Both the position numbers and the translations under genes were made by a program. This document shows, one piece after another, positions 9,868 through 61,260 of a DNA stretch of 64,000 bases (positions within the stretch are counted from its first letter, which is position 1; every line of letters begins with the position of its first letter). The notes under the pieces are model-generated. The model was not told the origin of the DNA and did no database searches. It saw only the letters and a list, made by a program, of their open reading frames with translations. Source of the DNA: Trypanosoma brucei (Eukaryota); the NCBI GenBank assembly GCA_000002445.1, contig CM000208.1, positions 3,936,001-4,000,000 on the forward strand, in the 5' to 3' direction.

Positions 9868-10800
9868 TCACCTGCGGCCGGCTCCGTTCAACCGCAATGA
9901 GAAATTGCGCCAGCCTTTTAGAGAAACATACATCTTGCACACACACACACCTTCTACCGCAAACCTGACACGTAACTCCTTCAAACCGGGACAGCTCATT
10001 AAGTGCAGCGACGTTTCTTCGCAGTCGCCGCGTTGGCTGGTAACAGCGCGCTCTACCTTCATACCGTTCATCTTCTTTTGATGTAGGGTGAGGCCAGTTT
10101 TGCTAGCACACTGCCTTCCGCATGTCTGGCACACCAACATGGATGCGTTTGTATGCGGGGAATCAGTGGCACACAATTTTGTGCTTTTGCTGCATTTAAG
10201 CTCGACTCCCTCACCTTTGTGGAAAGCCTTACAATGTCGGATGAGGGAGTCCCTGCAACTGAGCACTTTTTGGCACACACCACACTGCACCTCGCCCTTC
10301 CCCGGGACGTTAACATTTCCCTCACGGGCACGCTTACGAGGGAATTGCACCACCACCACGGTACCGTCCTCAGTCACTATGCTTTTATGTTTGAATTTCT
10401 TGTGTAGTGACAGGGAAGAGCGTGTACCGAAGCTCGCCTCACACAGGTCACATTGAAACGGCAGCTTCCGTGTATCCTGAGAGGCTGGCGCTGCTGGGGC
10501 TCTACCATCTCCTTGCAATGAGTTTTCGTTCTCTCGCCCCCTTTTCACGCGGCAACTACCGCTGCCTATGCCATGTATTGTTCTAAGGTGGTGTAATAGT
10601 CGGCCTGGCACTGCGAATTTGGAGGCACAGAGGGTACAATGAAGCACCTGCAGTCTCATCGGGACTCGTGTGCTCGATGGTAGAGGAACGATCGCCACCA
10701 CTGGAGAGGGTTCCGGGGGGATGTCCACTGCAGGTGTTGCATCGCCGTATTTGATCCTCCGGAGGGCATCAGCTCGCACAAACCCATGTTTGTTTACCAT
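9868..10800 (-). pseudogene. ingi C-terminal C2H2 zinc-finger domain segment
   Basis: 310-aa ORF with repeated C-x2-C...H-x3-5-H fingers: CTLCASKF...HHLRTIH, CDLCEASF...HKKFKH, CGVCQKVL...HCKAFH, CQTCGRQC...HQKKMNG. Confidence 0.7.
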
Positions 10801-10805
10801 GTGCG

Positions 10806-11405
10806 TTACAGCACTCGAGCGGCATTGGTATGTGGCATCACATTCCGTACATTTGGTCGGTTCGGAGGTTTTCTGAAGAGTGCATGTCGCAACAGGTGGG
10901 GTTGTTTGTATTGTATTGTTGGTCCTATCGCTGCATGTTTCTGGTTACACCATCGGCACTGTGAGGGCACACTCGGGTTGATCTTTCGCAACATCCATCC
11001 ATAGTGTCTTGAAGACCCAACCCGAAAGCGTGCCAGTGCCGTTTCTTCTTCCCTCGGCAGTTCTTCTTTATGTTTTGTTGGAAAGTGGTTGCCCGTGATA
11101 CCAAACCTATGAGTGTTCTCATGGACTTCTTCCGACCTAAGCACTCGCTTCGCATAAGCAATGATGTCGGGGATCCATGTGTCTCGCAACTGTGGTAAAT
11201 CTGCGGCCTTTTTGGCCATTTCATCACAAACCTCATTCCGTTTCACGCCACAATGGCCAAACACAAATTGCAGTCGGATACGCACCTTCCTTCTCTGAAC
11301 TTGAAGCAGAAGCCTCCATAGTCGTCTTAGAATTGGGTCCGTTACGGCTAGGGGGCCTGTCTGCAGTGCTTTTAACATTGACAGCGAGTCAGAGAAGATG
11401 GACAA
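10806..11405 (-). pseudogene. ingi RNase H domain segment (frame-shifted relative to the RT ORF)
   Basis: 199-aa ORF with RLQFVFGHCGVKRNEVCDEMAKKAA, an RNase H-like motif of ingi/L1Tc elements. Confidence 0.7.
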
Positions 11406-11600
11406 CCTGCTCGGTGTGCTTCTGTATGCCGGAAGCCATTTCAGCAGCCGTTGCAGTCCTATCTCTAATGCTACGCATTCCGCTCTGTAACTGCATTAGA
11501 GTTCCCCTGCTCCGGTTTTGGGTGCGCAAATCAGTGTATTGTTTCTATAGAGCAGGGCAGCTGCTCCGGACTCCTCACCGAGGGACACGGATCCATCAGT

Positions 11601-14600: not shown

Positions 14601-14669
14601 TGCTGGCTCTTGGCTTCCCCCGATGATACGGGGTACTGGACCCTGGAACCACGTTGAGGTGGCCGGCAT
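11601..14669 (-). CDS. ingi ORF: N-terminal 2A peptide, AP endonuclease and reverse transcriptase polyprotein (intact 1022-aa frame)
   Basis: MLLSGDVEENPGP (2A consensus D[V/I]ExNPGP) at aa 72-84. The AP endonuclease/RT region contains the RT signature HGFFADDLTLLASH. Confidence 0.85.
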   Translation of the reverse strand: MPATSTWFQGPVPRIIGGSQEPAAFLSWGTLLCSGYGIIQHRDQQRLVGTPFFICRSRGTYQRAISSIIRTKMLLSGDVEENPGPSLCGMQWNCAGLSQGKRLALHKTLVDERIAFCLLSETRMTPGEAGCFSVAGYQHHGIACNCKGGGVSILVREDLPVETGMALVGRIEQVHATIHLARGTALTVTSAYIPPKHTFTATDLDTLLTTDGAQLIGADANAHALAWDRASPPNTKGETLTQRCIDNQFLVCNTGECTRYARHHGESTPDVTLSRNCTVYTWTSLYSPDSDHHHIFFDVIVGDDTDALSCPRLRKPMYAWLKADWRNFRLKVDELCRKIGREKNVNTLEQKLSSAIRIATKVSVPRGCRATPPHWTPELAKLDEEIAGCGPSHRREKLVATRKQILDRTTKKRWSTLCSRLAVSDRCSWHIVKKIYAPRPLTTPAVLVDNAAITDYRQAERFSKLYSSRARRHPDSHPPAPIKTIASEFSPITMAELRRLIKLLPSGSAAGHDCLYNEALQHLGRTALNVVLRLFNESLRTGVVPPAWKTGVIIPILKAGKKAEDLDSYRPVTLTSCLCKVMEHTIAARLRDTVESQLTPQQSGFRPGCSTLEQLLHVRAALCRPTHQYRTGAVFVDYEKAFDTVDHDKTAREMHRMKVSPHIVKWCVSFLSNRTGRVRFKEKLSRSRTFERGVPQGTVLGPIMFIIVMNSLSQRLAEVPLLQHGFFADDLTLLASHTERDVINHTLQCGLNVVLQWSKEYFMSVNVAKTKCTLFGCIERHPLTLQLDGERIGADRTPKLLGVTFQCLQGMATHTAETRRKMDFRPLQIATISASTWGPRRQVLRAFYLALTQAHTMYGIEVWYWDASERSRDLLAAAQHKASRIIASIPHGTRNEDSLLEANLLPLKTTTLVRIMKFMLMCESRGGCLRRSSEEVYHSKHPVRALHSRIMRSYPHLRIEPREHPLETSTLRHSCRRLFHTQIKPVCADDPDDVKREASEKWIARHFSRRGKEPPRREHYEL
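14418..14441 (-). other. 2A self-cleaving (ribosome-skipping) peptide DVEENPGP within ingi ORF
   Basis: Reverse complement of ggccgggattctcttccacatc encodes DVEENPGP, followed by S. Confidence 0.85.
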
Positions 14670-14949
14670 CGTCAGGGGGTACAGCAGAAAAACGCCGGCG
14701 GCGAAAGCAGCAAACTAATAGCCAACGCGACACAAGCAACAGCGTGGACAACAGCAAACGGCAATCTAAGAACTGCAATGGGAAAATTACGCGGCGGTTT
14801 TCCAAAAGGAACTGCACACAAAGCAACAGCGCAAGCGATCATCTCAGCAGAGACAAAATCCATTCCCTAATCCGAGTAGCAAGCAACATAGGATACCTAG
14901 GCTGGTACGCACAGACGGGATGCGACGGCAGCCCTGACAACGGATTGTG

Positions 14950-15543
14950 TGTAAGGTAAAATAGAGAAATCACAAACACGGTAGATAACTTCAAATAACT
15001 AACTTTTGCAGCCGACTTATACACCGCGGCAAGCCTAATAGAGAAAAGACAGGCAGCACTCAAAAAGGCTGAAGCAACAAAGGCTGCAATTGCGGCAGCA
15101 GTTGAATTAGCATACGGCGCCCACGGTGAAATAGCTGCTCTCACTGCACTAACGGCAGTGACACAACCCCCGGTAAAACAAAATGACATAAAAGACAGTG
15201 ACGCAGTTTTAAACAAGCAAAAAGAATGCGAAGGAATAACAAAAGCAGCTGACTGCAAAAACAATGGAAACTGCAAATGGGAAGGACCTGATGAAAAAGA
15301 CGGAAAACACTGCAAATTTAATATGACAAAGTAGAGCAACAAGAAACACATGCAGGAACTGGAGGGATACAGACAGGTAAAAAGTGTTCTGATCACACTA
15401 AAAAAGAGGCATGTGAGGCAGAGAATGTGGGACTAGCCCCGGGACAAAAGGCTAAATGTGGCTGGATTGAAGAAAAGTGCAAAAATTCTAGTTTTCTCGT
15501 CAATAAGAAATTGGCTGTTAGTATGGATGCCATCTTAATATAA
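14950..15543 (+). pseudogene. VSG 3' fragment (C-terminal domain + GPI signal), 5'-truncated at the ingi boundary
   Basis: Encodes ...ECEGITKAADCKNNGNCKWEGPDEKDGKHCKFNMTK*, then (after a frameshift) ...[54 protein letters not shown]. There is no N-terminal domain upstream before the ingi end. Confidence 0.75.
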
Positions 15544-20865: not shown

Positions 20866-21065
<200 letters not shown>

Positions 21066-25612: not shown

Positions 25613-26715
25613 ATGAAATATATAGAAAGAATTCATGCAATAATAGGCTGTTTATCCTTTATTGTTATGGGGATTAATTTATTTACGTCACTATATAACT
25701 TGTTTTGTGAGGATTATCCTATTTCACTTGAAATAATAGAAAATGACTATATGAGATTTGTTACGCAGGATGTAAGGAGGATTTGGAAAAGCAAAGATTA
25801 TTTGGTTGTAGCTCTAATACCTTTAATAGATAATAACGAGATTTTAGAAGAAGGAATATTCAAAGAGAAACGTGTTGGAGTTATCCTGAAGTGGCAAGAA
25901 AGTCAAATAATTTTACAGGGAAGTTGCTTGTAGTATATGCTCTTTCACCTTACACAAATAACAATTGCAAACTCAGAGAAATTGCTGCAACAGAGGGTTA
26001 TGTAAATCAGGATATTATTATTTTACCCGTTTGCGATGTCGACCCTACAACAAATAAGAAAGTGGGAGAAGCTGGTAATTGGGGTTGGGAAGCAGAACTC
26101 ACGATGAGTAGAAAAACGTATCTGTGGTTCAAATTTTCAGTAGAGATATTCAAGAAAACTAATCCCTATATAATAAAAGCAGATAACGATATATTTATGA
26201 GAGTGCCATTGTATCTAAAATATCTAGAGCTGCTTCCAAGAGAAAAATTAAATATGGGGAGAGCAGTTGGATATTATAAAGATTTTAGTGATGAAATTAC
26301 ATGGCACACCATTGGTTATGCATCGACACTATCTAGGGATGTAGTTAAGAAAATTGTTGATTATGACCCTCTGAAAAAATTAGTAAAAGCACCAATTAAG
26401 TTCAGAAATTTTGAATCATATATGGATTTTAGAGCACTTAATGAAGATACTATGGTTGGAGAGGTAATAAGGAGTAAATTGAAATTTGAGGGTTTATTAA
26501 CTGTGGATATGCAGGACTGTCATTTTGTAATGCATGCGCAAACTCGGGGACCAACCGAGGCCAAAAGTAGTTGCAACATCATAGCATTTCATCATATCTT
26601 GCCTTACCAGTATCAACAGCTGCCCCTAACATCGAACACATCAATTTGTGCAGGCAAACGAAACCCAGTGTTACGCACCATAAACGATCAATGGGCAGAG
26701 TTCACTTGTCAATGA
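25613..26715 (+). pseudogene. Glycosyltransferase pseudogene copy 1 (trypanosome UDP-Gal/UDP-GlcNAc-dependent GT, GT31/GT67-like; frameshifted)
   Basis: Two overlapping ORFs in different frames (25613-25933 and 25891-26715). An N-terminal hydrophobic anchor suggests a type II membrane protein. YIIKADNDIFMRVPLYLKYLELL resembles the beta-3-glycosyltransferase LLKxDDDVFV (DxD) region. Confidence 0.6.
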
Positions 26716-33555: not shown

Positions 33556-33905
<350 letters not shown>

Positions 33906-35938: not shown

Positions 35939-37495
35939 ATGTGGATGCACCCGACTCAGTTCGGAGCGATGGCATTGCTCTTGCTATCGCTAGCAACAAA
36001 ACGCGCAACAGCAACCCTCGCGGACGGCGTCAACAGACGAGAGCATGCTTCCCTTTGTGTTTTTGTATCGATGGCGGGGTCAACAGTGGAGGTACCGGAA
36101 GTACCCCAACTAAAATCCGAAGACTATAAATTAATTCAGGCACTCAACCTCAGCACAGCACCTGATGACTGGCAAAATATGTTTTACAAAGACGCCTCGA
36201 AACAGAAAACTCATTTAACACCAGCAGAAGCTGGGAAGGCAACAGCGGGATATGCCGACTACTGGGGGGACTGGCTGGAAGCCGCCAAAGAGGTCGCTGC
36301 AAAGCCTTTGCAAGGGAAACTGGCAACCCTGAAAGCGGCCGAGCTAACCGGCGTGCAGAAGCAGCTAGCGTCGATAAAAATGCAGCAAATCGCAGCACGC
36401 GCACTGGCACTCAAAACGGCATTCCCAAAACTCTCGAGCAGCGCGGCAGCTCTAACTTCGGAAAACGCACTAAACAAGATAAAAAAAGCAACTTTCGGGG
36501 GCGACAAACTAACAGCCAAAACGGCAACGCGCGCCGCAGCTTTCGGAGGGGACACGGGGTCAACGCCAAGGGCGACGGTGTGCGAAGCGGCGGAAGGCGA
36601 AAAAAAGGCGGCCACGGCGACGGCAGCGCTAGTATGCTTATGCTTAAAGAACACAGGCGGAGCAGACAACGGCCCAACAAACGGTGCTTGCACACCAAAA
36701 GGGACAGGAACCGAAGGATGGCAGTCAACAGCGAACAAGGCGCCGGACAGAGACATCAAAAACATGACGCAGACATGCCCATTACCAAGCACAGCCCCGG
36801 TACGAAGCAGCGACCTGAAAGCAGCGGTAGCAGCTCTAAACGGCCTCATACACTCCGACAACACCGACGGTTATCTAGGCGCACGACTAACCGGCGCCTG
36901 CAACGGCAGCTCAGGGAACGGCATAGGTGTCAAGTTCACCGGCTACAACGCAGCTGGCAGCACAGCATTCAGCAAGCTACCATGGGTAGGTGACCTACAG
37001 CAGCTAGCAAATGACCTGGAAGAAAGAGAAACCAAAAAAGCACTGGCCGACCACCTGAATTCTCTAATAAATCTCGAGGCAACGGCGGCAGAAGAGGCAA
37101 TAAAGTTGAGCGGCGCCGAAGCAAAGCTGAATGGACCGCTGCCGGCAGGGCTGCCCACCAAAGTGCCACCCATAACTACAGTAACATGCGAGGTGCACAA
37201 TAAGTCCAAAACAAAGTGCTTAGAAGCGCAGTGCAAATGGGGAGGCAAAAAGGATGATGACGGCCCATGCCAAGCTAGCGACAAACAAGTTTCAGAGCAG
37301 ACAAAGCAAGATGGAAGAGATACAACAACAGGTGGAGATGCCAAGAAAGAGGAGAAATGCGCAGAGAAAGAGTAAAAAGACTGCAAATCTCCGGATTGCA
37401 AATGGGAAGGAACAGAATGCAAAGATTTCAGTCTTCTTGTAAATAACAAAATTTCTATTATTGTTTCTGTTTCTGTGAGTTTGGTAGCATTTTAG
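35939..37495 (+). pseudogene. VSG (A-type), intact except for one in-frame TAA (37373-37375) before the last ~39 codons and GPI signal
   Basis: 478-aa ORF with a signal peptide (MALLLLSLATKRATA), ALVCLCLKNTGG, NGIGVKFTGYNAAGSTAFSKLPW and CEVHNKSKTKCLEAQCKWGGKKDDDGPC. It continues in the same frame after the stop: KDCKSPDCKWEGTECKDFSLLVNNKISIIVSVSVSLVAF*. Confidence 0.8.
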
Positions 37496-39327: not shown

Positions 39328-40850
39328 ATGAATTATTTTTGTATAGGTGTTCTGATTGCTGTTGCTACAGCAGCAGTCAGGGCCGGAAATGTCCACAACG
39401 GCCAAAAAACCGAAGTTTTCGGAGCCTTATGCGAGCTAGCGCGCTTGTTACAAAACGCACCAGATGTTCCAGAGGCGCTCACAACCAAAACAGGAGACTA
39501 CAAGGAGATAATCAAGCGTAACATGAGCGTCGCAGACAGCTCATGGAAACAGTTATTCGCCGACAGCAAAACACCAGATCAATGGGCGACAGAAAGGCCA
39601 AAAAAAGGCGCAGCATAGGCAGACTGGGACAAAATGTGGGATGACTGGAGCGAAGCCATTAGGAGCCTCGAGGATACTCCTGGGAATACAAAAGCCACAG
39701 AAAAGCACTACTCTCAGCTATCACCCGCCCAACTTCAGCTCGCCAAGGCAGAACTGGCCCTGATATCCAACACAGCAGTCGAGTTAGCCACACTGGCACA
39801 GGCACAGGAACCATCGAGCAGACTGATAAAATCAACAGATATCGCAACGGAGATGAAAAAACTCTTTGTCGGAGACAAATCAGCGACGGTAACGGGCGCA
39901 ACGCGGGATCAGGTGTTCGGAGCCGGATCAGCTTCCATCAACTCACGAGAATCTGCCTGCACAACGACGCCGAACGGCAAAATTCAAACATTGCTGGCGG
40001 TAATGAGCTGTATATGCCAGGGAGAGCAAAGTGGCCAAATTGAAGACATTTGTTTCAATGGACAAACAGCCGCCAATGTTTGGGAAGACAATGGCGCGCC
40101 AAAAAACAACGCCGCAAAGGAAATAGCACAAAAATGCACCGCAGACGATCACAAACAGAAAACTACATACCGCACGATACGTCGAACACTAAACAACATC
40201 AACCGGCTCGTAACCACCAAATCCGGAAACACGTACCTCGGAGCATTCGAAACCAGCAGCGATGGTCAACAAGCCAACGGCAGATGCATAAAATGGCCGA
40301 ACCTCAAAACCCACGCCGTAGTAAAGGACGCCAGCACGCCGTGGATCAGCAGTGTTGCAGCGCTAGGAAGAGCATTACGCGGCAGAATCAAACACAATGA
40401 CAACATCAAATCAAAACAGGTAGCCCCCAAGAGACTAGCTGACCAATCCGCAGCATTGGAAAACGAGATAAATGTGGCGAGCAAACATCAGCGCTAACAA
40501 AGCAGCATACAACTCAAAGTGGCACATCAGGAAGCGTCTGCCTAGAGCACCGCAGCAACAAAACCCGTGGTGAAGCAGGCTGCAAATGGCATTAAGGGGC
40601 CGACAACAAGGATAAATGCTAACCAGATGAAAGTAAAGTAAAGACTTATACAAGTGCAGAAACAGGAGAACAAGCAGGTGCAGGGAAAGCATCTACAACA
40701 GAGAAATGCAAAGGAAATTGGAACCGAATGCGCCAAGGCCCCTGAATGCAAATGGGAGAATAATTTTTGAAAGGACTGCAGTTTTTTTCGTAAAAATAAG
40801 AAATTTTCTCTTTTTTCTGCAGCTTTTGTGAGTATGGTAGCATTTTAAGG
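39328..40850 (+). pseudogene. VSG pseudogene (in-frame TAG at 39616-39618; degenerate C-terminus with stops)
   Basis: Signal peptide MNYFCIGVLIAVATAA, then FGALCELARLLQ and NMSVADSSWKQLF. The same-frame continuation at 39634-40497 has MSCICQGE and GRCIKWPNLKTHAVVKDASTPWISS. The C-domain remnants EAGCKWH.. carry stops. Confidence 0.8.
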
Positions 40851-40912
40851 ATTATAAGGATTTTTGCTTATTTTCATGAAAATTTTAAAAATTTTCATTT
40901 TTGAGAGAATTT

Positions 40913-40928
40913 TACATATTTTAACACC
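40913..40928 (+). promoter_or_regulatory. VSG 3'UTR 16-mer variant (TTACATATTTTAACAC)
   Basis: 2 mismatches to the consensus. Confidence 0.6.
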
Positions 40929-41089
40929 TTTTGATAAAAATGTATAAATTTTTAAGAAACAAAAAATAATAATATATATATATATTTAGAATCTAAGTAA
41001 AATGTGTATGATATGATATGAGTATAAAGTAATATTGTGATAGGGTATTACAATTGGGTGGTATTCTAATTTTGTTTATTTTGTTTATT

Positions 41090-41173
41090 ATATGGATATT
41101 AAGAGAGATGTGGAGTAGTTTATGATAATGATACGAGAGGGTTGTGAGTATGTGTATACTAATACAATAAGAG
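41090..41173 (+). repeat. 70-bp repeat (single unit, degenerate)
   Basis: GATAATGATACGAGAGGGTTGTGAGTATGTGTATACTAATACAATAAGAG. Confidence 0.6.
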
Positions 41174-42643
41174 TTATTTGATGCCTAACTAGACTGCCAA
41201 AATAAAAGCACTTAATAGTAGAAAAGGAAAAAAGAGTGAGTTAGTGAGTATGAAAGAGTCAGATGAAATATGTGAAGTTTATACACAAGCGTTAAGATTG
41301 GAATAATCATACAGGATATGATGGAGGCGGACATCAGTTGGAACAGAGTTCCGTTTAGAGCCAAAATCTATTCGTTCGAACTAACACAAGGAAGAAACAA
41401 ATGGAGAAGACGGCCATGTGCATAATTTCTATTGTGCTGCCACAAAATCTTCGTTAGATGCATTATATCAATGGAAGGCATTGCCGTAGACAAACAAGAA
41501 CCCAAAACGGAAACCTCAGCTGATATATGGGTGCAAGTGGTCTAAAAGTGTGTCTCTCAGAAGAATCAAAAAAGTTAAAAGGAGAAGCGTGTAAAATAGA
41601 AACTGATGTGTCCATACAACCTCGAAAACAGTCACAAAATTAGCATCAAATTTACAAGTAGTAGTAACAAGCGGAAGAATAACCAAAACATCAAAAAAAC
41701 AATCATCAATGAAATAGCTATGCATCACAAGATGGTGTAGAAGCAGCGACTCTCAGTGGAACATTAAATCAGGCAAATACACAAAAGCAATAGGTGTAAA
41801 AGTTGTCGTTTTTTAGAGTGTATCTACGCAAAGGTGTGAAAAATACACATTAAATTGTAAAATTAGTAAAAAAAATAAATAAGTTGGCTTATTAGACTGT
41901 GGCAGCAAATACATCACGTACCAAAAATCACCCTAGGATACACAATTCTAGTGAATATTTAGTTCCAATTTGAAGATTTTCATTTTACAAAATTTTTTTA
42001 AAAAACAAGACCTGAAAGCAGCTAAATGGCGACGCTAACACATAGAGTGTGGAAATCAAAGCAAATGAGCCGTGCTTTAAAAATTGAAGCATTTTCTCCG
42101 TACTCGGACAAAGCACCGGAAAGATAGCAACCATGGAGATTGCAGAACACAGAAACTTTAGCACCTAGTGAAACAAGCACTTCGACGCAAACAATCGGAG
42201 AAAACCAACAACGGCAGAACAAACCTAACCGGTGCATCGGCAAATTTACTGATATTTGGCTGTTGCCCACTCAGAAGCTAGTATCAGACTTTACGTATGA
42301 TGAGCAAACTAATCATGGTCATTGATTGGTTTGCTAACAACTCAACAAAACTCGATGCAAAACACAACAACCACAGGTGCGAAGATAAAAAACTAGAGGT
42401 GTACAAGACAGTGACTATTCAATAGTTAAAACCACTTAAAAATTTAAAAAATACCAAAAATAATAATTTTATTATTTTTGTTTCAAAAGGGTACACACCT
42501 TCAGCGGAAACGAAAGCGAAGCCATAGCCGCTATAAAAGCCGCGACATCACAAAACCCAACCGTTACTGATCTCTATTTCCGTCTGTCCTACTTCAGGTT
42601 CAACAAAAGGCAACGCCGACTCCAGTAACCCCAGTAGCAGGGG

Positions 42644-43740
42644 ATGCCGATAACTCATGCCGTCTTTGCAATGGCCGCCGCCATAATAACGGGCAATCAA
42701 GGAGCAGAACCTGTCATTGGTACAGGCGCCAACCGGCGGGAGTTCGGTGCCATGTGCACTGTGCTACGGTGGACCTCAACGACATTCACTACCGAAGCAG
42801 CTGACTTGGACGACGACGGGATTTACAACAGCATAACTGAGATAAACTTGACCCTCGCGGAGCCATCGTGGAGCGCAACATTCCTTCAAGAAGGACAGAC
42901 AGACAAATGGCAGTTAACGCTACTACCTAAGCACGCATAAAATGCCGCTTTAAAAAAATGTGGGAACGCTGGGCACCAGCAGTCCAGAGAGTGGGGAAAG
43001 AAGCTGGCATACCACACAAGCTAAAAACGCTCAAAGCGGATGACTTCAAAGCCGACGAACTGCAAGCACGCAGGCGAACAGTAGGAAAAATAACAAGGAG
43101 GGCCACAACCTTGCACGAAAAACTAGGGGTTCAAAACAGAAAAGAAAGGAAGGTAACTCCGGATAAAATAAAGAACGGAATGTCCACGGCCTTTATAGGA
43201 AAAAAAGAGGGGAGGTTATGGGTGGACCTTGTAGAAGCCGAGGTGATCCTCACTGGAGGGAACACAAATGCCAACAGGGTCACCGGCTGCAAAAACACCA
43301 ACGTAGCCAATAACACAGGGAAAAATCTAGTGGCCGTAGCTCTTTGTGTATGTGCCAACAGGACAACGGGAAGTGCTGTGCAAGACACATGCTGGTCCGA
43401 AACGGCGGCGACTGTGGCATATCCGACAAGTGCGGGGAAAGTTCCAACGAAGATACAAGATCTAATCAAAATGTGTGGCGCCCAGAAACTAACAAAGCTG
43501 ACAGCAGCGGCCGTAGAGCAAGCACTAACCACAATAGCGTCGTCAGTTACAATCACGGCGACAGGCGCGTACATTGGAAAATTCCTTGCAACAGGTTGTA
43601 AAGGGGCACAAGACAGTAGTGTATGCTTCTGGTATAGCACGCTGAAACAACGACAAAAACAGATTTGAACGTAATACCGTGGTACAAAGAGCTTGCAGAC
43701 CTCGCCTCTGAACTCGCTTCAGATTAAGCTCTAGACTCAG
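42644..43740 (+). pseudogene. VSG fragment 1: complete N-terminal domain only (frameshifted), part of a compound VSG pseudogene
   Basis: Signal peptide + EFGAMCTVLRW and INLTLAEPSW. The second frame has VAVALCVCANRTT and ...VCFWYSTLKQRQKQI*NVIPWYKELADL (end of N-domain). No C-terminal domain follows. Confidence 0.7.
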
Positions 43741-43799
43741 CATATGACCCAATAGTAGCGGAATCAGCAGCGTTGAAGATCGAAGCACGAGTGAGTTCG

Positions 43800-45060
43800 A
43801 AGCAGTGAATTGCCATCAGAGACAACAAAAACCCTAGTAGCAGCAAAAAATAATGCAGCTATTGCAACAGCGGCAGCATCGACCAACCGGCAAACCTCAA
43901 CACAGACTGGAAAGAAAAATGATCGACGTGGACGGCTGCAGCTATGGTTGCCAACATCAAAGGGGCGGCAGACAAAATAAAGAAATATCACGTACTATAC
44001 GCAGCCGACGCGAGCCAACTACGAGAAACTAGTGTCGACGTCAGCCAAATGGCAGATGCAGCATTCGACGTCTACTCAGCGGCGGCAAACAAAGAAGAGA
44101 TCAAAACAGAAGAAGCCATGATAAAAGAGCTGAGAGAAGCACTAACAGGCAACGAACCCGTTGACAGCGCAAAGGCACTCACAAGCATGGCACAAACATA
44201 CGACGCTGCGTGTAACAGCGGAGCAACAGCAGCAGCGAAAACAACACTCGGTACTCTTTTCTGCTTCTGTGTAGTACCACACCTAAAAACCAAAAAAAAC
44301 ATGTATCGGGTGGTGCACCCATCTAACCTGGTCGGCCAGCAATGAACCACAGGTGGCCACTTACAACATACTACGAAAAATGCGCCTGCAAAGAACCACC
44401 AATACTATCACGAATCACAAACTCACGGCGGCGGTGGAGAACATCGAAAACAAGCTGACAGCCACTTCGACGACCGCCATGCTAGGCGAAGCGACGGCCA
44501 CATGTGACGCATCAAATACCGGTGCGTGCATAAAGTACCAAAACGCAGCGACCGGGGACGTTGTGGAATTTAACAAAATACCCTAGTTGGTAAAAATAAA
44601 AACGATAGCGCAGTGGCTACAACAAAGAGAGCAACGAAACGCAGCTAACAAGCTAGCAACGGAAGAACTCGAACGGCTAAAGAGACTAGTGTCTAAGATA
44701 GCAACTCACGCAAACAGACGGCCCAGCCCAGCCTATTCACATGCCCCAGCTAGCACAACAAACACAGCTAACCCCAAGCCGCAGCAAGAAAAATACTGCC
44801 CAACGATAACAAACCCGGATGAATGTAAACCAGACGCGGGATGCAAAAATAACTCTACAACTAACAAATGCGAAAAAAATCCAAAAAAATCGGTTGTGCA
44901 AGCAACCCAAGCAACAGAAGGGCCATCAACCGCAAGTGGGTGTGCAAAACACGGAACCGATAAAACCGCTTGTGAAAATGACAAAAATGTAAATTGGAAG
45001 GAAAAATGCAAAGATTCCGGTTTTTGTATATAAGAAATTGGTTAGGATGGCTGTTTCTTT
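43800..45060 (+). pseudogene. VSG fragment 2: 5'-truncated VSG (mid N-domain through C-domain and degenerate GPI signal)
   Basis: ORF 43944-44345 has ELREALTGNEPVD and LFCFCVV. ORF 44353-44586 has GACIKYQNAATGDVVEFNKIP(W). ORF 44587-45033 has the C-domain CPTITNPDECKPDAGCKNNSTTNKCEKN...CENDKNVNWKEKCKDSGF. This is a second IPW-containing N-domain end within 2.4 kb, so two genes are juxtaposed. Confidence 0.7.
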
Positions 45061-45149
45061 TGTAAGCTTGCTGTTTTACATTTTCTATAAATTCATGGTT
45101 TTTTAAGGATTCTTCCTTAATTTTTAAAATTAAGGGAATTTCACTGGTG

Positions 45150-48100
45150 ACGCCGAACACCTAATCATGGTGCCAGGGTCTATTACTACGTCCAAGAGTA
45201 AGCCAAATACAAGCATTATACACGATCCAACAGAATTGGAGCGGGAAACAGGTTTTCTGCTACCAGAAAAGGAGCAAGCAGAAGCATCAAACTCTGGGGT
45301 GAAGAAATATATTATACTGCTCCTCTGCGTGTGCAAGCGTGCTTTGCTACATGTGAAGCGAAACATGCTGCTTATTAACTGGACGTTGAGAAGAATACTC
45401 TTCCCATGATTCAAGGAGTCAAGTGGAACACTGGGGTGTAACCTCAAGTAAAACGACTTGCCTTGGAGAGGCGGCTTCAAGAGGATTATTTTGTCTTCTG
45501 CCTATTGCAGGATAGGAGCGTGGCCCCGGTGGAATCTACTGTGCTTAAAATAATGGATACCAGCATGTAGGTTTAGAAAAAACACCACATAGGGGTTGCG
45601 TTTTAATTTTAGTGAAAGATAGAGTGGGAGTAGAAGTGTGTCAGTTGGCAAACGAGTCCCAGAAATAGTGACAGCAATGCTACAATTTTTGGCTGATGTG
45701 AATTTTACAGTCACTTAAGTTTATTTTCCTAGAAAATCGATGGTTTCAAAAACATAGTTGGAACAATAAGCAGTAAAAAGCAGACCTCTGGTAGTAGGGG
45801 CAGATTTCAACTCACATCATGAGTTATGGAACCCAATGCAGAATAATAACAGCAAAGGGGAATGTATTGTGTATTTGTGTATCGAAAACGATACTAAGAT
45901 AGCAAACACAAGAAAAGAAACCCGTCGTCAGGCTGGAACGGCTGTATTGCCTTAAACAGACATCGCAATGAACAGACTGTGAGGTATTAAATTGGAAAAT
46001 TACACTGAGTCCTAAAAGCGACCATTTTTTGAATCACTTTTGATGTTCTGTTTGGTGATGGTACAGAGGCGATTGTATCTTCAAAACCTGCCAAGGCTTT
46101 ATACGTGTGGAATAAAGTGGGATGAAAAAACATCCGAAAAGTTATTGTTACGTTCTTTTCAACAAGACTAAAGAGAAAAATAAAGGATGCCGATGCACTA
46201 AATAAAGCCATCAGGAGAAGCATAAGACAAGCAGCCAAGAAAACCATAAGGAAGGTAAGGGTATAGAACCGCCTTTCTAGACGAAGGAATTGACAAAATA
46301 GGTAAGCAGACAATGAAGTGTCTGGACGAAAGCATGAGAGATGCACCGGGTATATGAAGAAGAAAAAAAGTGCTTGCAGACACGACCCTTTAGAGATGGA
46401 AGAAAAAGGTCTTCAAATTGAAAGTCACAAATCCTGTGAGCTGGAATATCGTTAAGTCCATTTACACTCCCCTTAGTTTTAGATTGCCAGTAATGGTAGT
46501 AGATGGACATCCATTTACTAAGTGCCAGCAGGCACACAAGCTTGCAACAATGTACATGGAGCGGTCAACAAAGACACTAGGAGCACCGAACATGCAAATT
46601 CCGATCGCCAGGAAAAGGACTTTCACACCAACTACAGAAGCCGAACTGGAAACTGCAGTAAAAGAGCTCTCCTCTGTAAATGCTTCGGAATACTACGAAA
46701 TTCATTGCGAAGAATTCAGACAGCGTGGAACGATTGGTCAAAGAGCTGTTGAGACTATTTAACTGCAGTGTGAAAAACAGTTAACTTCCGAAAAATGGAA
46801 ACCTTTTATAATTATTCCGCTGCTAAAGCATAATAAACTTGCGACAAAAATGGCATCATTCAAACCAGTGACACTACAACAAGCTGTAACAGAGAGATTA
46901 ACAGGAGAAAAAAGAAGCAGCAGTATTTATTTATCATGCTAGATTATTTGACTCTGTAGATCACCGATATAGAAACAAGGCACTACACGAATTCGGAATG
47001 AAGTTGCACCTGTTTGCCTGGATAGCGCGGCTTTTATAAATTAAGGACTGCACGAGTAAGAGTCGACAACACGAAGTCAGAAAAAATACAGCTAAAATGC
47101 GGCGTCCCCAACAGTTAGTGCTAGGCCTACTACTGTTTAATGTAGCAGTAGCCCATACTCGCTAAGTTCAATAATTAAAATGATTCCAGGATTGGCGTAT
47201 GGATTGTTTGCTGATTACCTCACAATAATGTGCTCATCCAAAATATTCGAGAGATCAGGAAAACAGTACAGATAGGACTTAATTGTACAGAAAAGTTGCC
47301 AGCGTTGCACTTCATGGAGATGCCAGTGATAAAGGGGAGTATACGCTATTTGTATCTAGGGACACAAACCGGATAAGACTAAAAGTTGGGGAAAGCTTTA
47401 AAGGAAAATAGAACTCCAAAGCAACTAGGATTGACAATACAGCCACATAACGGACGAAGTAAGCAAACATCCACACTTCCTACAAACAGCAGAAAACATG
47501 TGACTAATGAAGCTTATGGCAGTGGTCTCGCCAGAATGGAAACTAAGTAGGAAGACAATAAGAGCATTCTATTTATCTCTAGTTCAGTCGAACTTAGTTA
47601 TTGTATAGTGTCATGGTCGTTTAATGTATCGCCTTCGGAAAGGGAAAAGTTGAAAAAACAACATAAAATGCTGCTCACATTGTGGAAGTGATACCAAAAT
47701 CAGCAAACAGATTTAATGCTCTTTTAAATGTTAGTTTAAAGCCACTAAATAACGAATTAGCACATTGTAGAGCCATTGAATACTATCTGAGGGTTGAAAG
47801 TCAGGGGAGCAAAGTACGATAAAAAAGCGGCGAATAAAATGTTCCCACCAGAACATCCAATTCACATACAAAAGGAAAGTGTAATACATATATATGGCGA
47901 AACAGAAAAAACACGAAAACCACAAGATACAACTGTGCTTAAAATGGAAAAGTGAGTACATTTTAACATCAAGCCACCAGGGGCCTAAAAGATGACGCAT
48001 AAGACAAAGATAAGAAACTACAAACAATGAAGTAGGTAAAGTGTTTTAAAAACTATTACTATCAAGTATGGACAGATGAATAGGTAGTGTTAGATGTCTG

Positions 48101-50380
48101 CTCAGGTGCAGGAACGATAATGTCACACTCAATGGGAAAAATTAGGAAAGTACATATGGGTGCTGGATCGGTGGCATGCAGCTGTAGGGCGGAGAGTATA
48201 GCAATAGAGGCAGATCTCAAACGGCTCGTAAAGATATTGAGGACAATGAAAAAGCACAAAAACAAAAGTAGCTATATTCACAGACTCATTGTTGCTCTTA
48301 ATGAAGCTTAAAACTGAACATGGAGTAGTAACAGAATCGATACTGAAACGAATGTGAACATTAATTCTTCATATTGTGAGGCTAAGAGTAGCGGTCAACT
48401 TCCAGTTTGTATTCTCACACTGCAGGGTCCCAAGAAATGAAGCAGTTGACAAAGAAGCAGAGAAAGACGATAAAATGCTAAGGGCATATCCAGCATGGAT
48501 CACGGACATAGTCACATGTATAGAAAGGCAAATCCATCGAGAAGGGGACAATGAATTCTAAGAGGGAAAAACATTACAAACACACCACAGTGCTCCACTC
48601 AACCATATTAAACCTACTCATAACAAAGTTCAAAATGGACAGGATAGAGGAAATCATTACAAACGCAATTTATAACAGGCACCTTGAAACAATTCGGATG
48701 GCTACATCATGTGTTCACAAAAACAACAGAGTGGCCTGATTGTAGATAGCGTCGTGGTGACTATGTGGAACTGGATACAGCTGTTAATGGGAAAGCGAGA
48801 AGTACACAGAACGATAATACGGAAACACAGTCATCACAGGTATTGGTAAGACAAAATGAGCCCATAATATCCCCGTTGTGCAACGTGGTGCGTGCACGTC
48901 GTCAAACTAGAGTAGTTTGCCTGATAAAGAAACACGGTTCAGAAAAGGAAAGAGCACTGGAAATGACAAAGATTGCAAAATTGGCAGTTAAGGCATATAA
49001 AGGTAACTAAGACTGCCATGTTTGTGAAATGAATTTTGGGAGAAGTGGTTTACTAGTGGAGCACATGGTCACACATACAAGGAAATGATATCGCAGGTTG
49101 GGAATCAACAGAAAAGGAGCATAAAAGAAGAGGCAGATGAGGAAAAAGAAAAGCTAGGGTGTCGATGGTTCCATATGAAATATGTGTTGTATGGATGGTT
49201 AAAAAGGAATATGCTAACAAAACATCCTGAATAGCAGCAAACAGAAGACAAAAAATGAGAATCAACCTGCAGATCATAGCATGGATGATACAGAATAAGG
49301 AGGATAGAACTGGAGTGTCAAAGGTGTAAAATAATTCTAAAGAGTAAAACTTAACTGACCAGACACAAATGCATTCCAAAGTCAGACAATACTACAGGAG
49401 ACTTCAAAGAGAAAGAAAAGCCACTTAAAGAAAAATGCTCCATGTGTGGAAAGAAGTACCATTAGAGTTGACTTCTTTGTCATATGCGTGAAAAAAACAA
49501 GACACAATGAGTCTTTGAGTTCAAGGTAGCAAATAAAACATTCAAGAGCCAGGAAAGGATCCTTGTAAGATCATTTAGTGAGAAAAAAGGCATTTCAAGA
49601 GGCAGGGGAAACAATTGATTGGAAAAGACCGAGAAAAGGCCAAAAATATGGAGGCACACAGTACTAGAAGAAGGAATAAATTTTGTGTGTGCAAGGTGTG
49701 ATAGTGCATACAAGACACAACACTCACTGGTGTGGCACACACGAACCTACCATAAGGTGCCACAACTGTTAAAAGGAAGAAGAAAGATGAATTGGTAATA
49801 ATAACTCCTACAATGCAGGAAACGACCCAACGCCCGTACTGCCCAATGAGGTGCACACAGAAGCAGTACCGGACAAGGCATCTTCAAGAGAGACACGGTA
49901 AGCCGAAGAAGGAAGCAGTGTAAAACTTGCTGAAGGTCAAATGTGAGGAGTCACCAACCCATCCACTGGTGTGCCCGATATTACTTCCACTAAGGAAAAA
50001 AAGGTATAGAGAGCCTGAAGGAAAAGAAAATATATAACAGTGGCAGCTGGCCCAATTCCTAATGGGTATCTTTAAAATAAGTGGCCACAATGAACCCACT
50101 CTATCCTCTTACAAAAAAGGAAATACAATCAAGAAGTAAAAGGGAGAAGATCGCCAGAAAAGCTGAATATCCCATCCCCATCTTCCCAGCCGTTGGTATT
50201 ACAGACATTCCATAATATGGAGGGGACAAAACGCCATTTCGAAATTTTTTCCCTAGTAGAGACAAAAAAGGAACAGTATCAATGGAGGAAGCGAGGACTG
50301 ATTCATGGCTATTTAAACATCTTCCAAAGATATGCAGAGTATAGAAAGTAGCAGAGCAGCTAATGAAGCACATGTAGATT
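45150..50380 (+). mobile_element. DIRE (degenerate ingi-related element), plus strand
   Basis: Colinear degenerate homologues of the ingi ORF. ORF 46418-46762 (VSWNIVKSIYTPLSFRLPVMVVDG...) matches ingi CSWHIVKKIYAPRPLTTPAVLVDN... ORF 48376-48561 (LRVAVNFQFVFSHCRVPRNEAVDKEAEKDD) matches the ingi RNase H RIRLQFVFGHCGVKRNEVCDEMAKKAA. C2H2 fingers occur at 49011-49088 (DCHVCEMNF...HMVTH), about 49685-49760 (CARCDSAYKTQHSLVWHTRTYH) and about 49828-49890. It is riddled with stops. The boundaries are approximate. Confidence 0.7.
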
Positions 50381-50560
50381 AATTTCACAATGAAAAAGAA
50401 TAAGAAATTTTTTCTAATTTTTGCTGCCTATGTAAGATTATTATTTTTTTAAAATCAAGAACTTTAAAGTTTTAAAAGATTTTGCTCTTTTTTTTATTAA
50501 TTTACTATTCTAATATATTTAACTTTTATTGATGAAAATGTGAAAATTTGGTAAAAATTG
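50380..50560 (+). other. VSG 3'UTR-like remnant downstream of the DIRE
   Basis: CTAATATATTTAACTT (16-mer-like) followed by TTGATGAAAATGTGAAAATTTGG, the same motif found 3' of other VSGs here (54150-54180, 57640-57660). Confidence 0.5.
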
Positions 50561-50644
50561 TATTATATTGGACTATGGGTGTAAAGTAGTAGTATAATAG
50601 TGTATGAAAAGTGACTGGTACTCTAATTTATTCATCTTATTTAT

Positions 50645-50740
50645 TTTATAGATATTAATTATGGTTCGAATAGCAATGGTAACAGCAAGGTAGTGATAGG
50701 AGAGTGTTGTAAGTGTGTATATACTAATATTATACAAGTG
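50645..50740 (+). repeat. 70-bp repeat (single unit)
   Basis: GTGATAGGAGAGTGTTGTAAGTGTGTATATACTAATATTATACAAGTG, preceded by the TTTTATAGATATTAATTATGG boundary. Confidence 0.7.
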
Positions 50741-52486
50741 TTTATGGTAAATATCTGGTGGGAAAAAAAAGAAACAGTTAAACCTATGGGTGAGTAAAGG
50801 TAGGTAAGGGAGTATGAAAGAACGAAGAATATCATCAAAGAAAAGCATAACCACAAAGAGAGTAATGAAGAGGGAAGAACATGGTATATTCGCAGTTTTG
50901 TACACATATGATTATGGGCAGCATCATAGAAAAGGACATGATGAAGACGACAATGAGAAAAGGAGAAAGTGCAGTGTAAAGCCAAAATATTTCACTACGT
51001 TATTCATAGAAGCATTGACTGAAGATAAAAAGGAGGGGACATGTAGAGTCAAGCGGATTAATGTGTGAAAGTACAGCAGATGATAATGACACATCAAAAA
51101 AGAAAAGTAGGAGCCCATTTATGTGTTGTATTACTCAAAACTGAATATATGCGACGGCGGATATGATTGAATCTATAGCTTTTAATCTGATGGAGTATCT
51201 TAATGTCCAACAGTGAATAAACAGAACCTGGAGCTGTAAGAAGGAATTGGGTAAGTGTGGGATAATATTTAAGTCCTCTTTTTATCAAATATGATAATAA
51301 TAGCTACCATATGTGTAAAACAAAATAAAAATAGTCAGGCTAATTTTTAAACTAAGATTAACAATATATTAGTGTGTAAAGTAAATTAAAAATAAAAAAA
51401 CAGAAACTGCATTCAATAGAAGATGTGTGCTTGGCATACGATCTCTATGAAGTGGAAACAATCAGTTACAATATTCTACCAATTCGGTATTTGTACGCTT
51501 TCCAGACAATAAGAGCTTTTAAGGGAGTGTAATTTATGTAAAAGTAGAAGTTGATTCACAGCTGACGAAGCGTGTTAACGGAGATAAAAGGAAGAGGTAG
51601 CTACGTACAGAGCACAACTTTCAATTTTTTAACCGCAAACGTTATAGAGCAGAATATAAAGACCTGAAGGAAAAGGTCAACCAATTTGGCAGTAAGAAGA
51701 AGGATTGAAATTATATTTCGAGGGAAAGAGACAGTGGAAAATTGATAGATGACGTAGAGCAATGACGACCATAAATTTCACATTTTTAGACATAAATACA
51801 GAACAAGGCATATTGGATTTATAAAGTGGAAAATTGTCGTTTAACAGCGTGATTTTTATAACTTTCCACCGAAGACGAACAACTTTGTGTTACGTTGTAA
51901 ATCACATGGAATGTCAGGCAGCAAAAAGAGGTTTAACAAACCTAATCAAGAAATTAAAAGAGGAATGAACACCCAAAACATTTGTAAAAATATCTATAGA
52001 AACATTATTCCTTACAACGGAACGTCAGAAAATCAATATATGACTCTTGTGCGTTCGTGATAGCTGGAATAACATCAATAATTGGGCATTGAGAACAGAA
52101 GATGAAAAAAATGACCCTCAGTCCTAACCGATGATTACAATAATTATATACATGTCCAGATACCATCCCAACTCAACAAGATATTTGACTATACACATTC
52201 ATGGGGTTCTCTAGTTTGTACTGTTCGGCTGGACAAAACGATCAAACACAACAAACACACGCGCCAAAAGCCGCCAGCAGGGCAAGCGATATCCTTTCGT
52301 AGACAGCAGCAGACAGTGAAGGCAGCTTCTGTAGTTGTGCGTAAAAAAAAGCAAGAAACCTCACATGTAAATCATTTAAAACAAAGACCAAACCCTTTTA
52401 AATGTCCTGAACATCAAAAAAACCCGCAACTCTACGACTTACAAGTTTGTTCAATCAAAAGCAAAAGTACCAGTAAAAAACTTGCA

Positions 52487-54063
52487 ATGTGCGACAAATT
52501 TGTTGTTGTGCTACTACTAGCAAGTGGCAGCCTAGCTGACCCTACAACGATGGGCAACGACGCCACGACTTGGTGTCACGAGAGAGCCTACGTCAAGGTG
52601 ATGATTGAGACAATCGAAGACGAAAGAACAGAACGCACGGAGCGGATCAAAGAGGACACCAGGCTAGCGGCGATATTGAACCTACCGGCGGAACACGAAG
52701 CGGCAACTGGGCCGTCCAAAACACGCCAAATACTCTCTATCGCTGCGAAGCAGATGCTTGTAAAAAAGGGACAAAAGCTGGTCGATTTCTTGACAGCAAC
52801 ACAGTGGCCGTTAAAGTATCTTCGGGCGCGACTCAAACTATATGACAATGCAGAGGTAGTTGCGGCGGACAGCGTGCCAACGTTAGGCAACGGCCAGCAC
52901 AGCAGCAACGCCATGGACGCAAACCCCTGCTCATTACACCTAGCGATTAAACAGACAGGAGACAGCATCTGCAGCAGACCGACGCCAGCAGGAGCAACGA
53001 AAGCGGCAGTCAGAGCGAAGATCAACAAATTTACAAAAGCAAAAGCAGTCGACCGTCTCACAGTACCAGCACTTATAACAGGCGGAAAAGCAGAACTGAA
53101 AGCCGGCGACAGCAGCAAATCTTGGACCGGCGTGCAAAACATAGCCGGCTGCTGCAGCTGCACAACAGGCTGCGGCACACACGTCAAGATAACCAGCATA
53201 TCTCAAGCGACAGCAGCAACGAAGGACCGTGAAGCAGCAACTACGCTACCAACAACCGATACCGACTATCCTCAAGATGACGCCGCAGCCGCCAACCCAA
53301 CCCACCAAAACAAAGCCAAGCTGCTGGCAGTATACAAAAAGCTCAAAGAAGCGTTTGCAAACAAGCCACTGAAACTAACGGATATAACGTTAGCTCAAAT
53401 ATAGACACTAGCGAGGAAAGCCGGCGTCGACGCGGCATTATTAGACCCGATAGAAAAACTCGGCAAAGCAGGAACCGAAGCAAGTAACTCTAAACTAGAC
53501 GCAGAAATGGACAGGATTTACAACTCTGGCGCAGACTTCAAAACCAATTTCATTGATAATGCAAAAACTATCAAAATAAAGATCACTGTTGAGGCAGGAA
53601 GCGAACCCATGGAACTGCAGCAGATTGTAGCCAAATGTTAAAATTTCCAAAGCATTTGCATATCTGAAGAAACACCAGTTGAAAAAACAACTCGCTGAGA
53701 AATCCGCAGCGACTACAACGGCGACAAAATCAGCCTCTCAAACCTGTCAGACCAAAAACAAAAAGGCAGACTGCAAAGACGGCGATGGTTGTAAATGGAA
53801 CAGTACTGAGACAAACGAAGGGGATTTCTGCAAACCGAAAAAGGAAGAAGGATAAACAAACACAGAAACAGGAACAGGAGAAGGAGCAGCAGGGAAAGAG
53901 GAAAAGAAAGAAGAGAAATGCAAAGGGAAAGAGCAAAAACACTACAAAGATGGATGCAAATGGGATGGAAAATAATGCTTGCAAAGATTCCAGTATTCTT
54001 GTCGATAAGAGATTGGCTCTGATATCTGCTAACTTTATGTGTTTGGTAGCATTTTATTATTGA
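52487..54063 (+). pseudogene. VSG pseudogene (B-type-like N-domain; in-frame TAG at 53402-53404 plus C-terminal frameshifts)
   Basis: MCDKFVVVLLLASGSLA signal peptide and a cysteine-rich N-domain (CSLHLAIKQTGDSICS, GCCSCTTGCGTH). The C-domain has CQTKNKKADCKDGDGCKWNSTETNEGDFCKPKKEEG. The terminal ORF 53785-54063 has ...CKDSSILVDKRLALISANFMCLVAFYY*. Confidence 0.75.
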
Positions 54064-59772: not shown

Positions 59773-61260
59773 ATGCAGTGCCTAGCCACAGCAGTATTTT
59801 TTTTGCTAGCATTTCTTTACAGCACAGAGCAGGCTGTTGGCTCGAAAAAAGCTAATGCACAGTGCAAAAGCGCCTGCGGCTGTAAATCGCGACTGCTTAA
59901 GCGGTTAGACCTTTACACAAGCAAGTACGCCGACGGCATAAGCAATGAACGCAGAAATACCGAAGCCCACGCAAAACTCGTCGCGGCAGCGCTGGCAGCC
60001 CCACCTTCAATGAGGAAGAAGATCTTACCTTTACTAGTGGCAGCGGGCGATATCCTTGATACTTGTCGGGCTGATCTTGCAACAGCACGGCCCCTTGTGC
60101 AAACGGCAATGGCAAAAGTCACAGAAGCTGCCGGAGTCTACAATACACTGCAGAAGTTAGAAGACAACCTCGGCGAAGTAAAGATCGAATTTGGCGGCAG
60201 CGACCTCAACCTACCCGTAACCAAATTTACAACAAAATCTCTAGGCGCTCTAAAACAAGCAAGCTGCACTGGCCCGGATGGCGAACCGCAAGGACTCAAA
60301 CTAGCCTTCGAACACGAAGAAAACGAACCATAACCAGCAAAACTAATAACACACAGCCACATCGACCTGACCTGCAGGACGGGCGCAAGCCAAAACACGG
60401 CCTGCCACGGAAACGTAATCAACAACCAAGCTCACATAACAATAGGGCATAGCTTTAGCAAAGCGGCAAAAGACGAAAGCGAATAGTGGGCGGCGGCAGC
60501 CGCAAAGAAAAAAAAACCATACACAGCAACGAAGCCGATTTCCTCGGCGGCAACGCGACGGTGGCGCACGAAGCGCTCAAAGCAATACGGTCAGCAGGAG
60601 CCACGACGCCCTGCAGCTCGCTCATAACAGATTTCAATGCTGTTAGAAGCAACCCCAAATTCAAAATAATGGTAATCAAGGCATTGCTGAACAAGCCACA
60701 AGCGGAGAAGGAAAGTGACGCAACACCCGCCGAAGTAACTGAGGCGATTAACACTGCCTACGGTCGGGAAGGCGCCGACTACAAGACCAAAACATGGAAA
60801 GATATAGGTTCAACTCTAATTCCCAAGGCAGATCCGTCAGGGGAAAAAACAGACACAATCGACAAGCTCTCAAGCTTGCCACTATGGGCCGACGCAATAG
60901 CACGAATCCTCCTACAACAAACGACAAAGCAAGAGGAACAATCAATAAAAACCTCCAGCGACGAAACAACAAACAAAGAATGCGACAAACACACTGCTAA
61001 AACCGAAGGAGAGTGCAACAAACTCGGATGTGACTATGACGCCGAAAATAAAAAATGCAAACCTAAATCAGAAAAAGAAACCACAGCGGCAGGAAAAAAA
61101 GATAGAGCTGCGGGAGAAGCTGGATGTGCAAAGTATGGAACTGAGAAAACTAAATGCGAAGCTAACAAAAGCTGCAGATGGGAAACCGAAACTTTTAAAA
61201 ATTAAACTTTTCTTTAATAAAATTTGCTTTGATTTCTTCTACCTTTGTTAGTTTGGCGTA
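59773..61260 (+). pseudogene. VSG pseudogene (B-type; frameshifted)
   Basis: ORF 59773-60333 has the signal peptide MQCLATAVFFLLAFLYS and AQCKSACGCK. The middle frame is 60334-60485. ORF 60486-61205 has the C-domain ECDKHTAKTEGECNKLGCDYDAENKKCKPK...GCAKYGTEKTKCEANKSCRWE. A degenerate hydrophobic tail follows. Confidence 0.75.

Follow-up and report, generated by a model that had tools for sequence, protein, structure and literature searches.

About 80% of the variant surface glycoprotein (VSG) archive consists of pseudogenes or fragments (PMC13233330), and these usually fall into the categories of full-length pseudogene or isolated fragment (PMC13233330, PMC3708902). VSG pseudogenes donate segments via segmental gene conversion and feed the formation of mosaic VSGs (PMC3708902, PMC13233330), which are colinear, length-preserving patchworks from related donors (PMC3708902). 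Here, we analyzed a stretch of 64,000 nucleotides from Trypanosoma brucei (the window; assembly GCA_000002445.1, contig CM000208.1, positions 3,936,001 to 4,000,000), and we focused on the locus at window positions 42644-45076 on the + strand. This locus is very probably a single cassette with a dead compound VSG pseudogene, in which two unrelated type-B VSG pieces are joined head to tail and out of frame, and this is the best explanation of the locus as a whole.

The compound locus belongs to a well-known class, the VSG pseudogenes and fragments of the archive, and its compound form is a minor variant that is conserved in two genomes. Like other members of this class (PMC13233330, PMC3708902), it has a 70-bp repeat cassette, homology to type-B VSGs, stop codons, frameshifts and truncated pieces, and is non-functional. 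Unlike the usual full-length pseudogenes or isolated fragments, however, it consists of two unrelated truncated pieces fused to each other, so that the N-terminal domain (N-domain) is present twice. With mosaic VSGs (PMC3708902, PMC13233330) it shares sequence from more than one VSG, and the patchy divergence and replaced 3' end of its copies recall segmental conversion. While mosaic VSGs have an open frame and related donors and are found in expressed genes, the compound locus is a silent and dead 2.4-kb sequence in which dissimilar VSGs meet out of register. The colinear, length-preserving build from related donors is not seen here, and the term mosaic or segmental recombination product, which the original prediction had used, is therefore not appropriate.

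The compound pseudogene is made up of the following parts.

42644-43790 (+ strand): fragment X, comprising a signal peptide, a complete type-B N-domain and about 25 linker residues (VSG_B match and P0001 alignment)
43791-43827 (+ strand): junction interval of 37 bp not confidently assigned to X or Y, between the end of X homology at 43790 and the start of Y DNA homology at 43828
43828-45076 (+ strand): fragment Y, which covers another, different type-B VSG from residue ~82 through to its end (VSG_B match and Y-family alignments)

Along these parts, the Pfam profile VSG_B (PF13206; 352 positions) is crossed twice in series, from position 13 to 335 and then from 115 to 351. Fragment X matches the profile with an E value of 1.5e-54 and 186 bits (13-335/352) and fragment Y with 7.5e-23 and 81.8 bits (115-351/352); both halves lie above the gathering score of 25 bits, which is the cut-off for membership, and both are of type B. 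An in-house type-B profile, built from seven full-length VSGs and run on all six frames of the window, gave a similar picture: over 42659-45027 it ran from position 6 to 351 and then restarted, running from 109 to 481. About 230-300 N-domain positions are represented twice at the compound locus. All other type-B loci in the window showed a single colinear pass (e.g. 4 to 468, 2 to 388 to 473, and 1 to 467 to 483), and the proposed arrays of such joined fragments are an over-generalisation, since no second two-pass locus was seen among the type-B VSGs of the window.

A three-frame translation of 42400-45300 places the start of fragment X, MPITHAVFAMAAA..., at 42644. The closest relative of fragment X is P0001, an atypical TREU927 VSG of 508 aa, to residues 1-383 of which it aligns over three reading frames at 50% identity; it is 41-43% identical to P0011 and P0012. 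A complete but frameshifted first N-domain had been predicted, and the VSG_B match at 13-335 together with the P0001 alignment agrees with this. The IPWYKELADL sequence that had been given as the end of this domain is present inside fragment X, although it lies at 43674-43703 and not at ~43740 (about 40 bp off), and the X homology runs on to 43790.

Fragment Y comprises the remainder of an N-domain to ~44640, a C-terminal domain (C-domain) at ~44640-45020 and a remnant of the glycosylphosphatidylinositol (GPI) signal at 45026-45076. It aligns to residues 98-496 of P0003 (Lister 427 VSG-501) at 61% identity and to residues 118-486 of P0002 (EATRO1125 VSG 1125.4264) at 67%, and also to P0004 (1125.2611) and the T. 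equiperdum VSG P0005, the family range being 61-67% at the amino acid level. At the DNA level, window positions 43884-45512 are 79.5% identical by BLAST to the T. equiperdum locus L001, over the gene for P0005 and the flank 3' of it, and a local DNA alignment pushes the start of Y back to 43828, which corresponds to nucleotide 246 of the L001 coding sequence, in codon 82. In P0002, P0003 and P0005, the signal peptide and the first ~80 residues that are missing from fragment Y are present; P0004 is itself N-terminally truncated. The predicted LFCFCV motif was located at 44256-44273, in fragment Y. The second N-domain end is also present, but instead of the expected IPW it reads KIP*L, because the Trp codon has become TAG at 44584-44586. 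The cysteine-rich C-domain is homologous to the C-domains of P0002-P0007 and is matched by the in-house profile at 340-481 (E 1.2e-41); Pfam PF10659, the VSG C-terminal domain, gave no match in this region even at E<=1. Thus the C-domain that had been proposed is supported by homology, while the GPI signal proposed next to it is the remnant VYKKLVRMAVSFVSLLF (45026-45076), which is out of frame and followed by a lost stop codon (TAC). Separately, the C-domain of the Y family seems to be one cysteine short.

When fragment X was compared with fragment Y by BLASTP, the similarity was not significant (E 0.28). Together with the two profile passes and the distinct closest relatives of the two halves, this bears out the prediction of a compound pseudogene made of two different VSG fragments. 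We also considered a partial internal tandem duplication of the N-domain of a single VSG followed by divergence, which would account for a profile that is crossed twice in the same orientation, from ~110/115 to 335/351. However, the halves lack significant mutual similarity and have much closer relatives elsewhere (X 50%; Y 61-67% at the amino acid level and 79.5% at the nucleotide level), and the Y family occurs unfused in four other sources. We therefore regard a tandem duplication as very improbable.

The two fragments are joined from about codon 383 of X to about codon 82 of Y, out of frame and out of register. The gap from the end of X to the start of Y is 38 bp by DNA alignment (43828) and 94 bp by BLAST (43884), in line with the prediction that the second N-domain would follow within 200 bp. 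From ~43810 on, the junction interval is probably the start of Y, as judged by the resemblance of ELPSETTKTL to TLADESWQKTL; DNA and protein alignments gave no clear extension of Y 5' of 43828. The 37-mer of the junction has no other copy in the window or in L001, and no repeat or source of filler was found there. Residues 1-80 of Y and the C-domain of X were not found near the locus, where only family-level matches to other VSGs were obtained. Because the Y 5' end and the X C-domain are absent nearby, the locus cannot have arisen simply by one fragment inserting into a gene that was otherwise complete.

The reading frame of the compound locus is interrupted by four in-frame stops, all base substitutions, and at least five frameshifts. 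The lesions are as follows.

42938-42940 (+ strand): stop TAA in X (GAA in P0001), read directly from the sequence
~42947-42950 (+ strand): -1 frameshift in X, in a T run
~43640-43650 (+ strand): frameshift in X
43725-43727 (+ strand): stop TAA in X
~43870-43880 (+ strand): frameshift in Y
43920-43922 (+ strand): stop TGA in Y (TGG in L001)
44292 (+ strand): +1 frameshift in Y, in an A8 run
44584-44586 (+ strand): stop TAG in Y, in place of Trp
~45022 (+ strand): -1 frameshift in Y, before the GPI signal
45077-45079 (+ strand): terminal stop of Y lost (TAC)

A functional VSG has one uninterrupted open reading frame (ORF) of ~450-530 codons with a signal peptide, one N-domain, a C-domain, a GPI signal and a stop; the longest ORF at the compound locus is 236 aa, and the locus cannot encode a coat protein. 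Its length of 2433 bp also exceeds the ~1.3-1.5 kb of the other VSGs in the window. When the exact window ORF 42958-43668 was searched with phmmer against 1.84 billion representative proteins, 86 hits were obtained, and among them no VSG relative was longer than 538 aa (range 216-538 aa); the best-matching stretch of this ORF corresponds to residues ~103-335 of full-length VSG relatives. Two long hits, P0013 (2161 aa) and P0052 (934 aa), were set aside as unrelated tandem-repeat proteins that are not VSGs. The view that ~2.4 kb is too long for one VSG is thus upheld, and a colinear alignment of the whole 2.4 kb with one long VSG, for which we checked, was not found. It could still be argued that the locus encodes a functional, unusually long VSG-like protein with two N-domains and that its lesions are sequencing errors, as two of the frameshifts lie in homopolymer-type runs. 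The four stops, however, are substitutions, and all four are also found in the T. equiperdum copy described below; with an ORF of at most 236 aa and no VSG relative of such length in the protein library, we consider a functional protein of this kind next to inconceivable.

Two of the lesions concern the 3' end of fragment Y. The 16-mer of the VSG 3' untranslated region, TGATATATTTTAACAC, occurs at nine sites in the window at <=2 mismatches, compared with 0.12 expected, and no such site was found at <=5 substitutions in window 45001-45600 or in L001 11201-12300, so that in this respect the compound locus does not look like a cassette of the silent array. The unfused Y paralogue in L001 has the same aberrant 3' end, namely the -1 frameshift before the GPI signal, the lost stop and no 16-mer. 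Since these features are also present in the unfused gene, the 3' end was already defective in the Y lineage. This aberrant end recurs across strains (window 44975-45512 and L001 11366-11943, with loss of the stop by a TAA-to-TAC change), and VSG-501 and 1125.4264 show a further frameshift (A6 vs A5, ~44983) with the C-terminus ...KKCKLEGKMQGF....

The same fusion is found in T. equiperdum. The best phmmer hit, P0010, has 162 aa and 82% identity; its end shows the same frameshifted reading, ...STLKQRQKQI, and it is encoded on the T. equiperdum contig QSBY01000016.1 (L002) of assembly GCA_003543875.1. Window positions 40234-44986 align to L002 7053-11802 at 93.0% in a single high-scoring segment pair of 4760 nt that crosses the junction, and the alignment goes on at 82% through the downstream retroelement to 50451. 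The junction interval is identical at 37 of 37 positions, and the two-pass profile map of L002 is the same as that of the window. Seven lesions are common to both copies (TAA 42938, the frameshifts at 42947, 43640 and 43870, TAA 43725, TGA 43920 and TAG 44584), while the window alone has the +1 at 44292 and L002 alone a -1 near 44881. Since the same join and seven lesions occur in an independent assembly, the fusion is real and heritable, and the seven shared lesions show that the common ancestor of both copies already carried a dead fused gene. Subtelomeric VSG arrays are repeat-rich and difficult to assemble, and a chimera of two unrelated VSG pseudogenes made by the assembly would mimic such a join; given the 37/37 junction and the colinear 93% alignment over 4760 nt in GCA_003543875.1, and with the junction free of repeats that might confuse the assembly, this explanation is hardly credible.

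As a separate observation, the upstream neighbour VSG (window 39349-40900; L002 6369-7720) is ~50% identical overall to its T. equiperdum counterpart at the amino acid level, and 93-98% identical at the nucleotide level from ~40234 on. This marks a sharp recombination boundary at ~40234, in the end of the N-domain of the neighbour, which is the start of the 10.2-kb shared block. A further case of adjoining VSG pieces within one cassette was seen in L001, where a short N-terminal VSG fragment at 1454-1663 (+ strand; profile 12-79) lies ~400 bp 5' of a full-length type-B VSG at 2058-3389 (profile 12-470).

Detailed comparison of the two copies revealed that they have changed unevenly since the fusion. 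In 60-nt windows, the window sequence and L002 are mostly 92-100% identical, while four patches, 43234-43413, 44254-44373, 44614-44853 and 44914-45273, are divergent at 63-83% identity. In a three-way comparison over 44964-45263, identity was 83-93% between the window and L001, 63-73% between the window and L002, and 62-70% between L002 and L001. Since the window is close to L001 and L002 is far from both, the ancestral Y-type end has been retained in the window, and the 3' end of the T. equiperdum copy was replaced. The corresponding ~300 bp of L002 (~11790-12110) reads ...CGNGSFLVNKQLAPISFAFIGFVAF*, a canonical VSG C-terminus with an in-frame GPI signal and a stop, and this replaced end is 79-86% similar to other VSG 3' ends. 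The patchy divergence and the replaced 3' end suggest segmental conversion into the silent pseudogene, which we take as their best explanation on the basis of these alignments. The replacement resembles 3' donation, which is known from expressed VSGs (PMC3708902), with a silent pseudogene as the recipient in this case. On a nearly even judgement that leans slightly to the negative, the conserved fusion might act as a natural marker, revealing that pseudogenes in silent arrays are recipients of segmental gene conversion and not only donors. If this holds true, marked loci could be compared across strains, and conversion tract lengths and rates within the archive could be derived from them.

The surroundings of the locus bear on how the join arose, and the following features flank the compound pseudogene.

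41122-41170 (+ strand): single degenerate 70-bp repeat, the upstream cassette edge, 1.47 kb 5' of the ATG
45077-45512 (+ strand): 3' flank carried along with fragment Y, matching colinearly the region 3' of the Y paralogue in L001, to L001 11943
45380-50000 (+ strand): degenerate ingi-related retroelement (DIRE-like), a colinear tblastx chain to the ingi at 9412-14678

The repeat at 41122-41170 is 89% identical to the tract at 21009-21045 and 82% to that at 33823-33871 in the window, and 89% to L001 7519-7555. Its spacing of 1.47 kb falls within the ~1-2 kb at which a 70-bp repeat lies upstream of a silent-array cassette and agrees with the typical position "approximately 1.5 kb upstream" of a VSG (PMC4858185).

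We infer that the compound locus arose by an illegitimate join, because X and Y lack significant similarity and meet out of register. In T. brucei, microhomology-mediated joining is the dominant form of end-joining, and non-homologous end-joining was not detected (PMC2377438); because of this reliance on microhomology, a microhomology-mediated deletion is favoured, and the join was probably of this type. The favoured event would be a deletion of ~3 kb between two neighbouring cassettes, which would have removed the C-domain of X, the intergenic region and the first ~80 codons of Y; cassettes elsewhere in the array are spaced at 2.7-4.5 kb. Later, segmental conversion in patches would have followed, including the exchange of the T. 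equiperdum 3' end for a canonical VSG 3' end. An alternative, possible but rather doubtful in our judgement, is a mis-resolved duplicative gene conversion, in which X, copied from the upstream 70-bp repeat onward, entered the Y cassette and had its downstream end resolved illegitimately at Y codon ~82 and not in the homologous 3' end. In its favour, one 70-bp repeat is found 1.47 kb upstream, as is usual, and VSG conversion normally has its 5' boundary at such a repeat (PMC4858185). In addition, the flank 41170-42643 shows no similarity to the sequence 5' of the Y paralogue in L001 and so came along with X, the 3' flank is that of Y, and silent copies at this locus bear signs of conversion. 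However, the same observations are equally expected under a deletion between neighbouring cassettes, and both events fit them equally well.

Here, we need to consider several points that weigh against our reading of a compound pseudogene made by an ancient deletion. First, among the sequences compared, no unfused X or Y parent is close enough at the DNA level to reveal microhomology at the breakpoint, and the joining event cannot be reconstructed. Second, the 37-bp junction interval could be either diverged Y sequence or filler. Third, with an identity of 93%, the T. equiperdum copy could be a paralog from a block duplication and not an ortholog, which would weaken the dating of the fusion but not the reality of the join. 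Finally, the frameshifts at ~42947 (T run) and 44292 (A8) lie in homopolymer-type runs, and that at 44292, being private to the window, could be a sequencing error.

The compound locus has no role as a gene, and at most it would be a passive store of N- and C-domain sequence for segmental conversion into an expressed VSG. It provides one well-defined example of decay and reshuffling in the VSG archive, in which a fusion came into two Trypanozoon genomes by inheritance or as a copied block and afterwards underwent patchy modification. The understanding of antigenic variation is unchanged by it. Nevertheless, the result is of value for annotation, as the T. equiperdum record calls only the 162-aa ORF at the fusion locus, and recombination events in silent arrays could possibly be dated with the fusion as a landmark.

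The window as a whole is a silent subtelomeric VSG array of a T. brucei-group (Trypanozoon) parasite. Besides the nine 16-mer sites, 70-bp repeat tracts recur between genes along the window, and A-type and B-type VSG domains were found by Pfam in ORFs throughout it. The compound locus has an internal position in this array, with other VSG cassettes and retroelements on its flanks. The DIRE-like element occupies an unusually long gap of 7 kb from the compound pseudogene to the next VSG, and the next 70-bp repeat past it is at 50535-50734. The element lies inside the 10.2-kb block common to T. equiperdum and is 82% identical at the nucleotide level to L002 11951-17420. The ingi at 9412-14678 is a near full-length retrotransposon of 5.3 kb with ORFs on the - strand, including a 1022-aa endonuclease/reverse-transcriptase ORF as well as RNase H and zinc-finger ORFs, and it is 95.7% identical to T. 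equiperdum L001 12206-17459. It is positioned at a switch of VSG orientation, with VSGs on the - strand below 6 kb and on the + strand above 14.8 kb, and a C-terminal-only VSG fragment (14852-15504, + strand; profile 289-483) starts ~170 bp past its end.

Among the other genes of the array, 35939-37375 (+ strand) carries an apparently intact 478-aa type-B VSG with VSG_B and Trypan_glycop_C domains, the closest database relative of which is 36% identical. Two long ORFs in VSG-cassette positions, 52316-53404 and 59773-61205 (both + strand), gave no Pfam N-domain match even at E<=1, and C-domain-like matches were found just 3' of the former (53670-53843) and in the 3' part of the latter (60915-61187); these ORFs may be divergent N-domains. 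Finally, a 274-aa ORF at 25891-26715 (+ strand) lies between VSG cassettes and shows no significant Pfam family, with a weak galactosyltransferase match (E 0.021).

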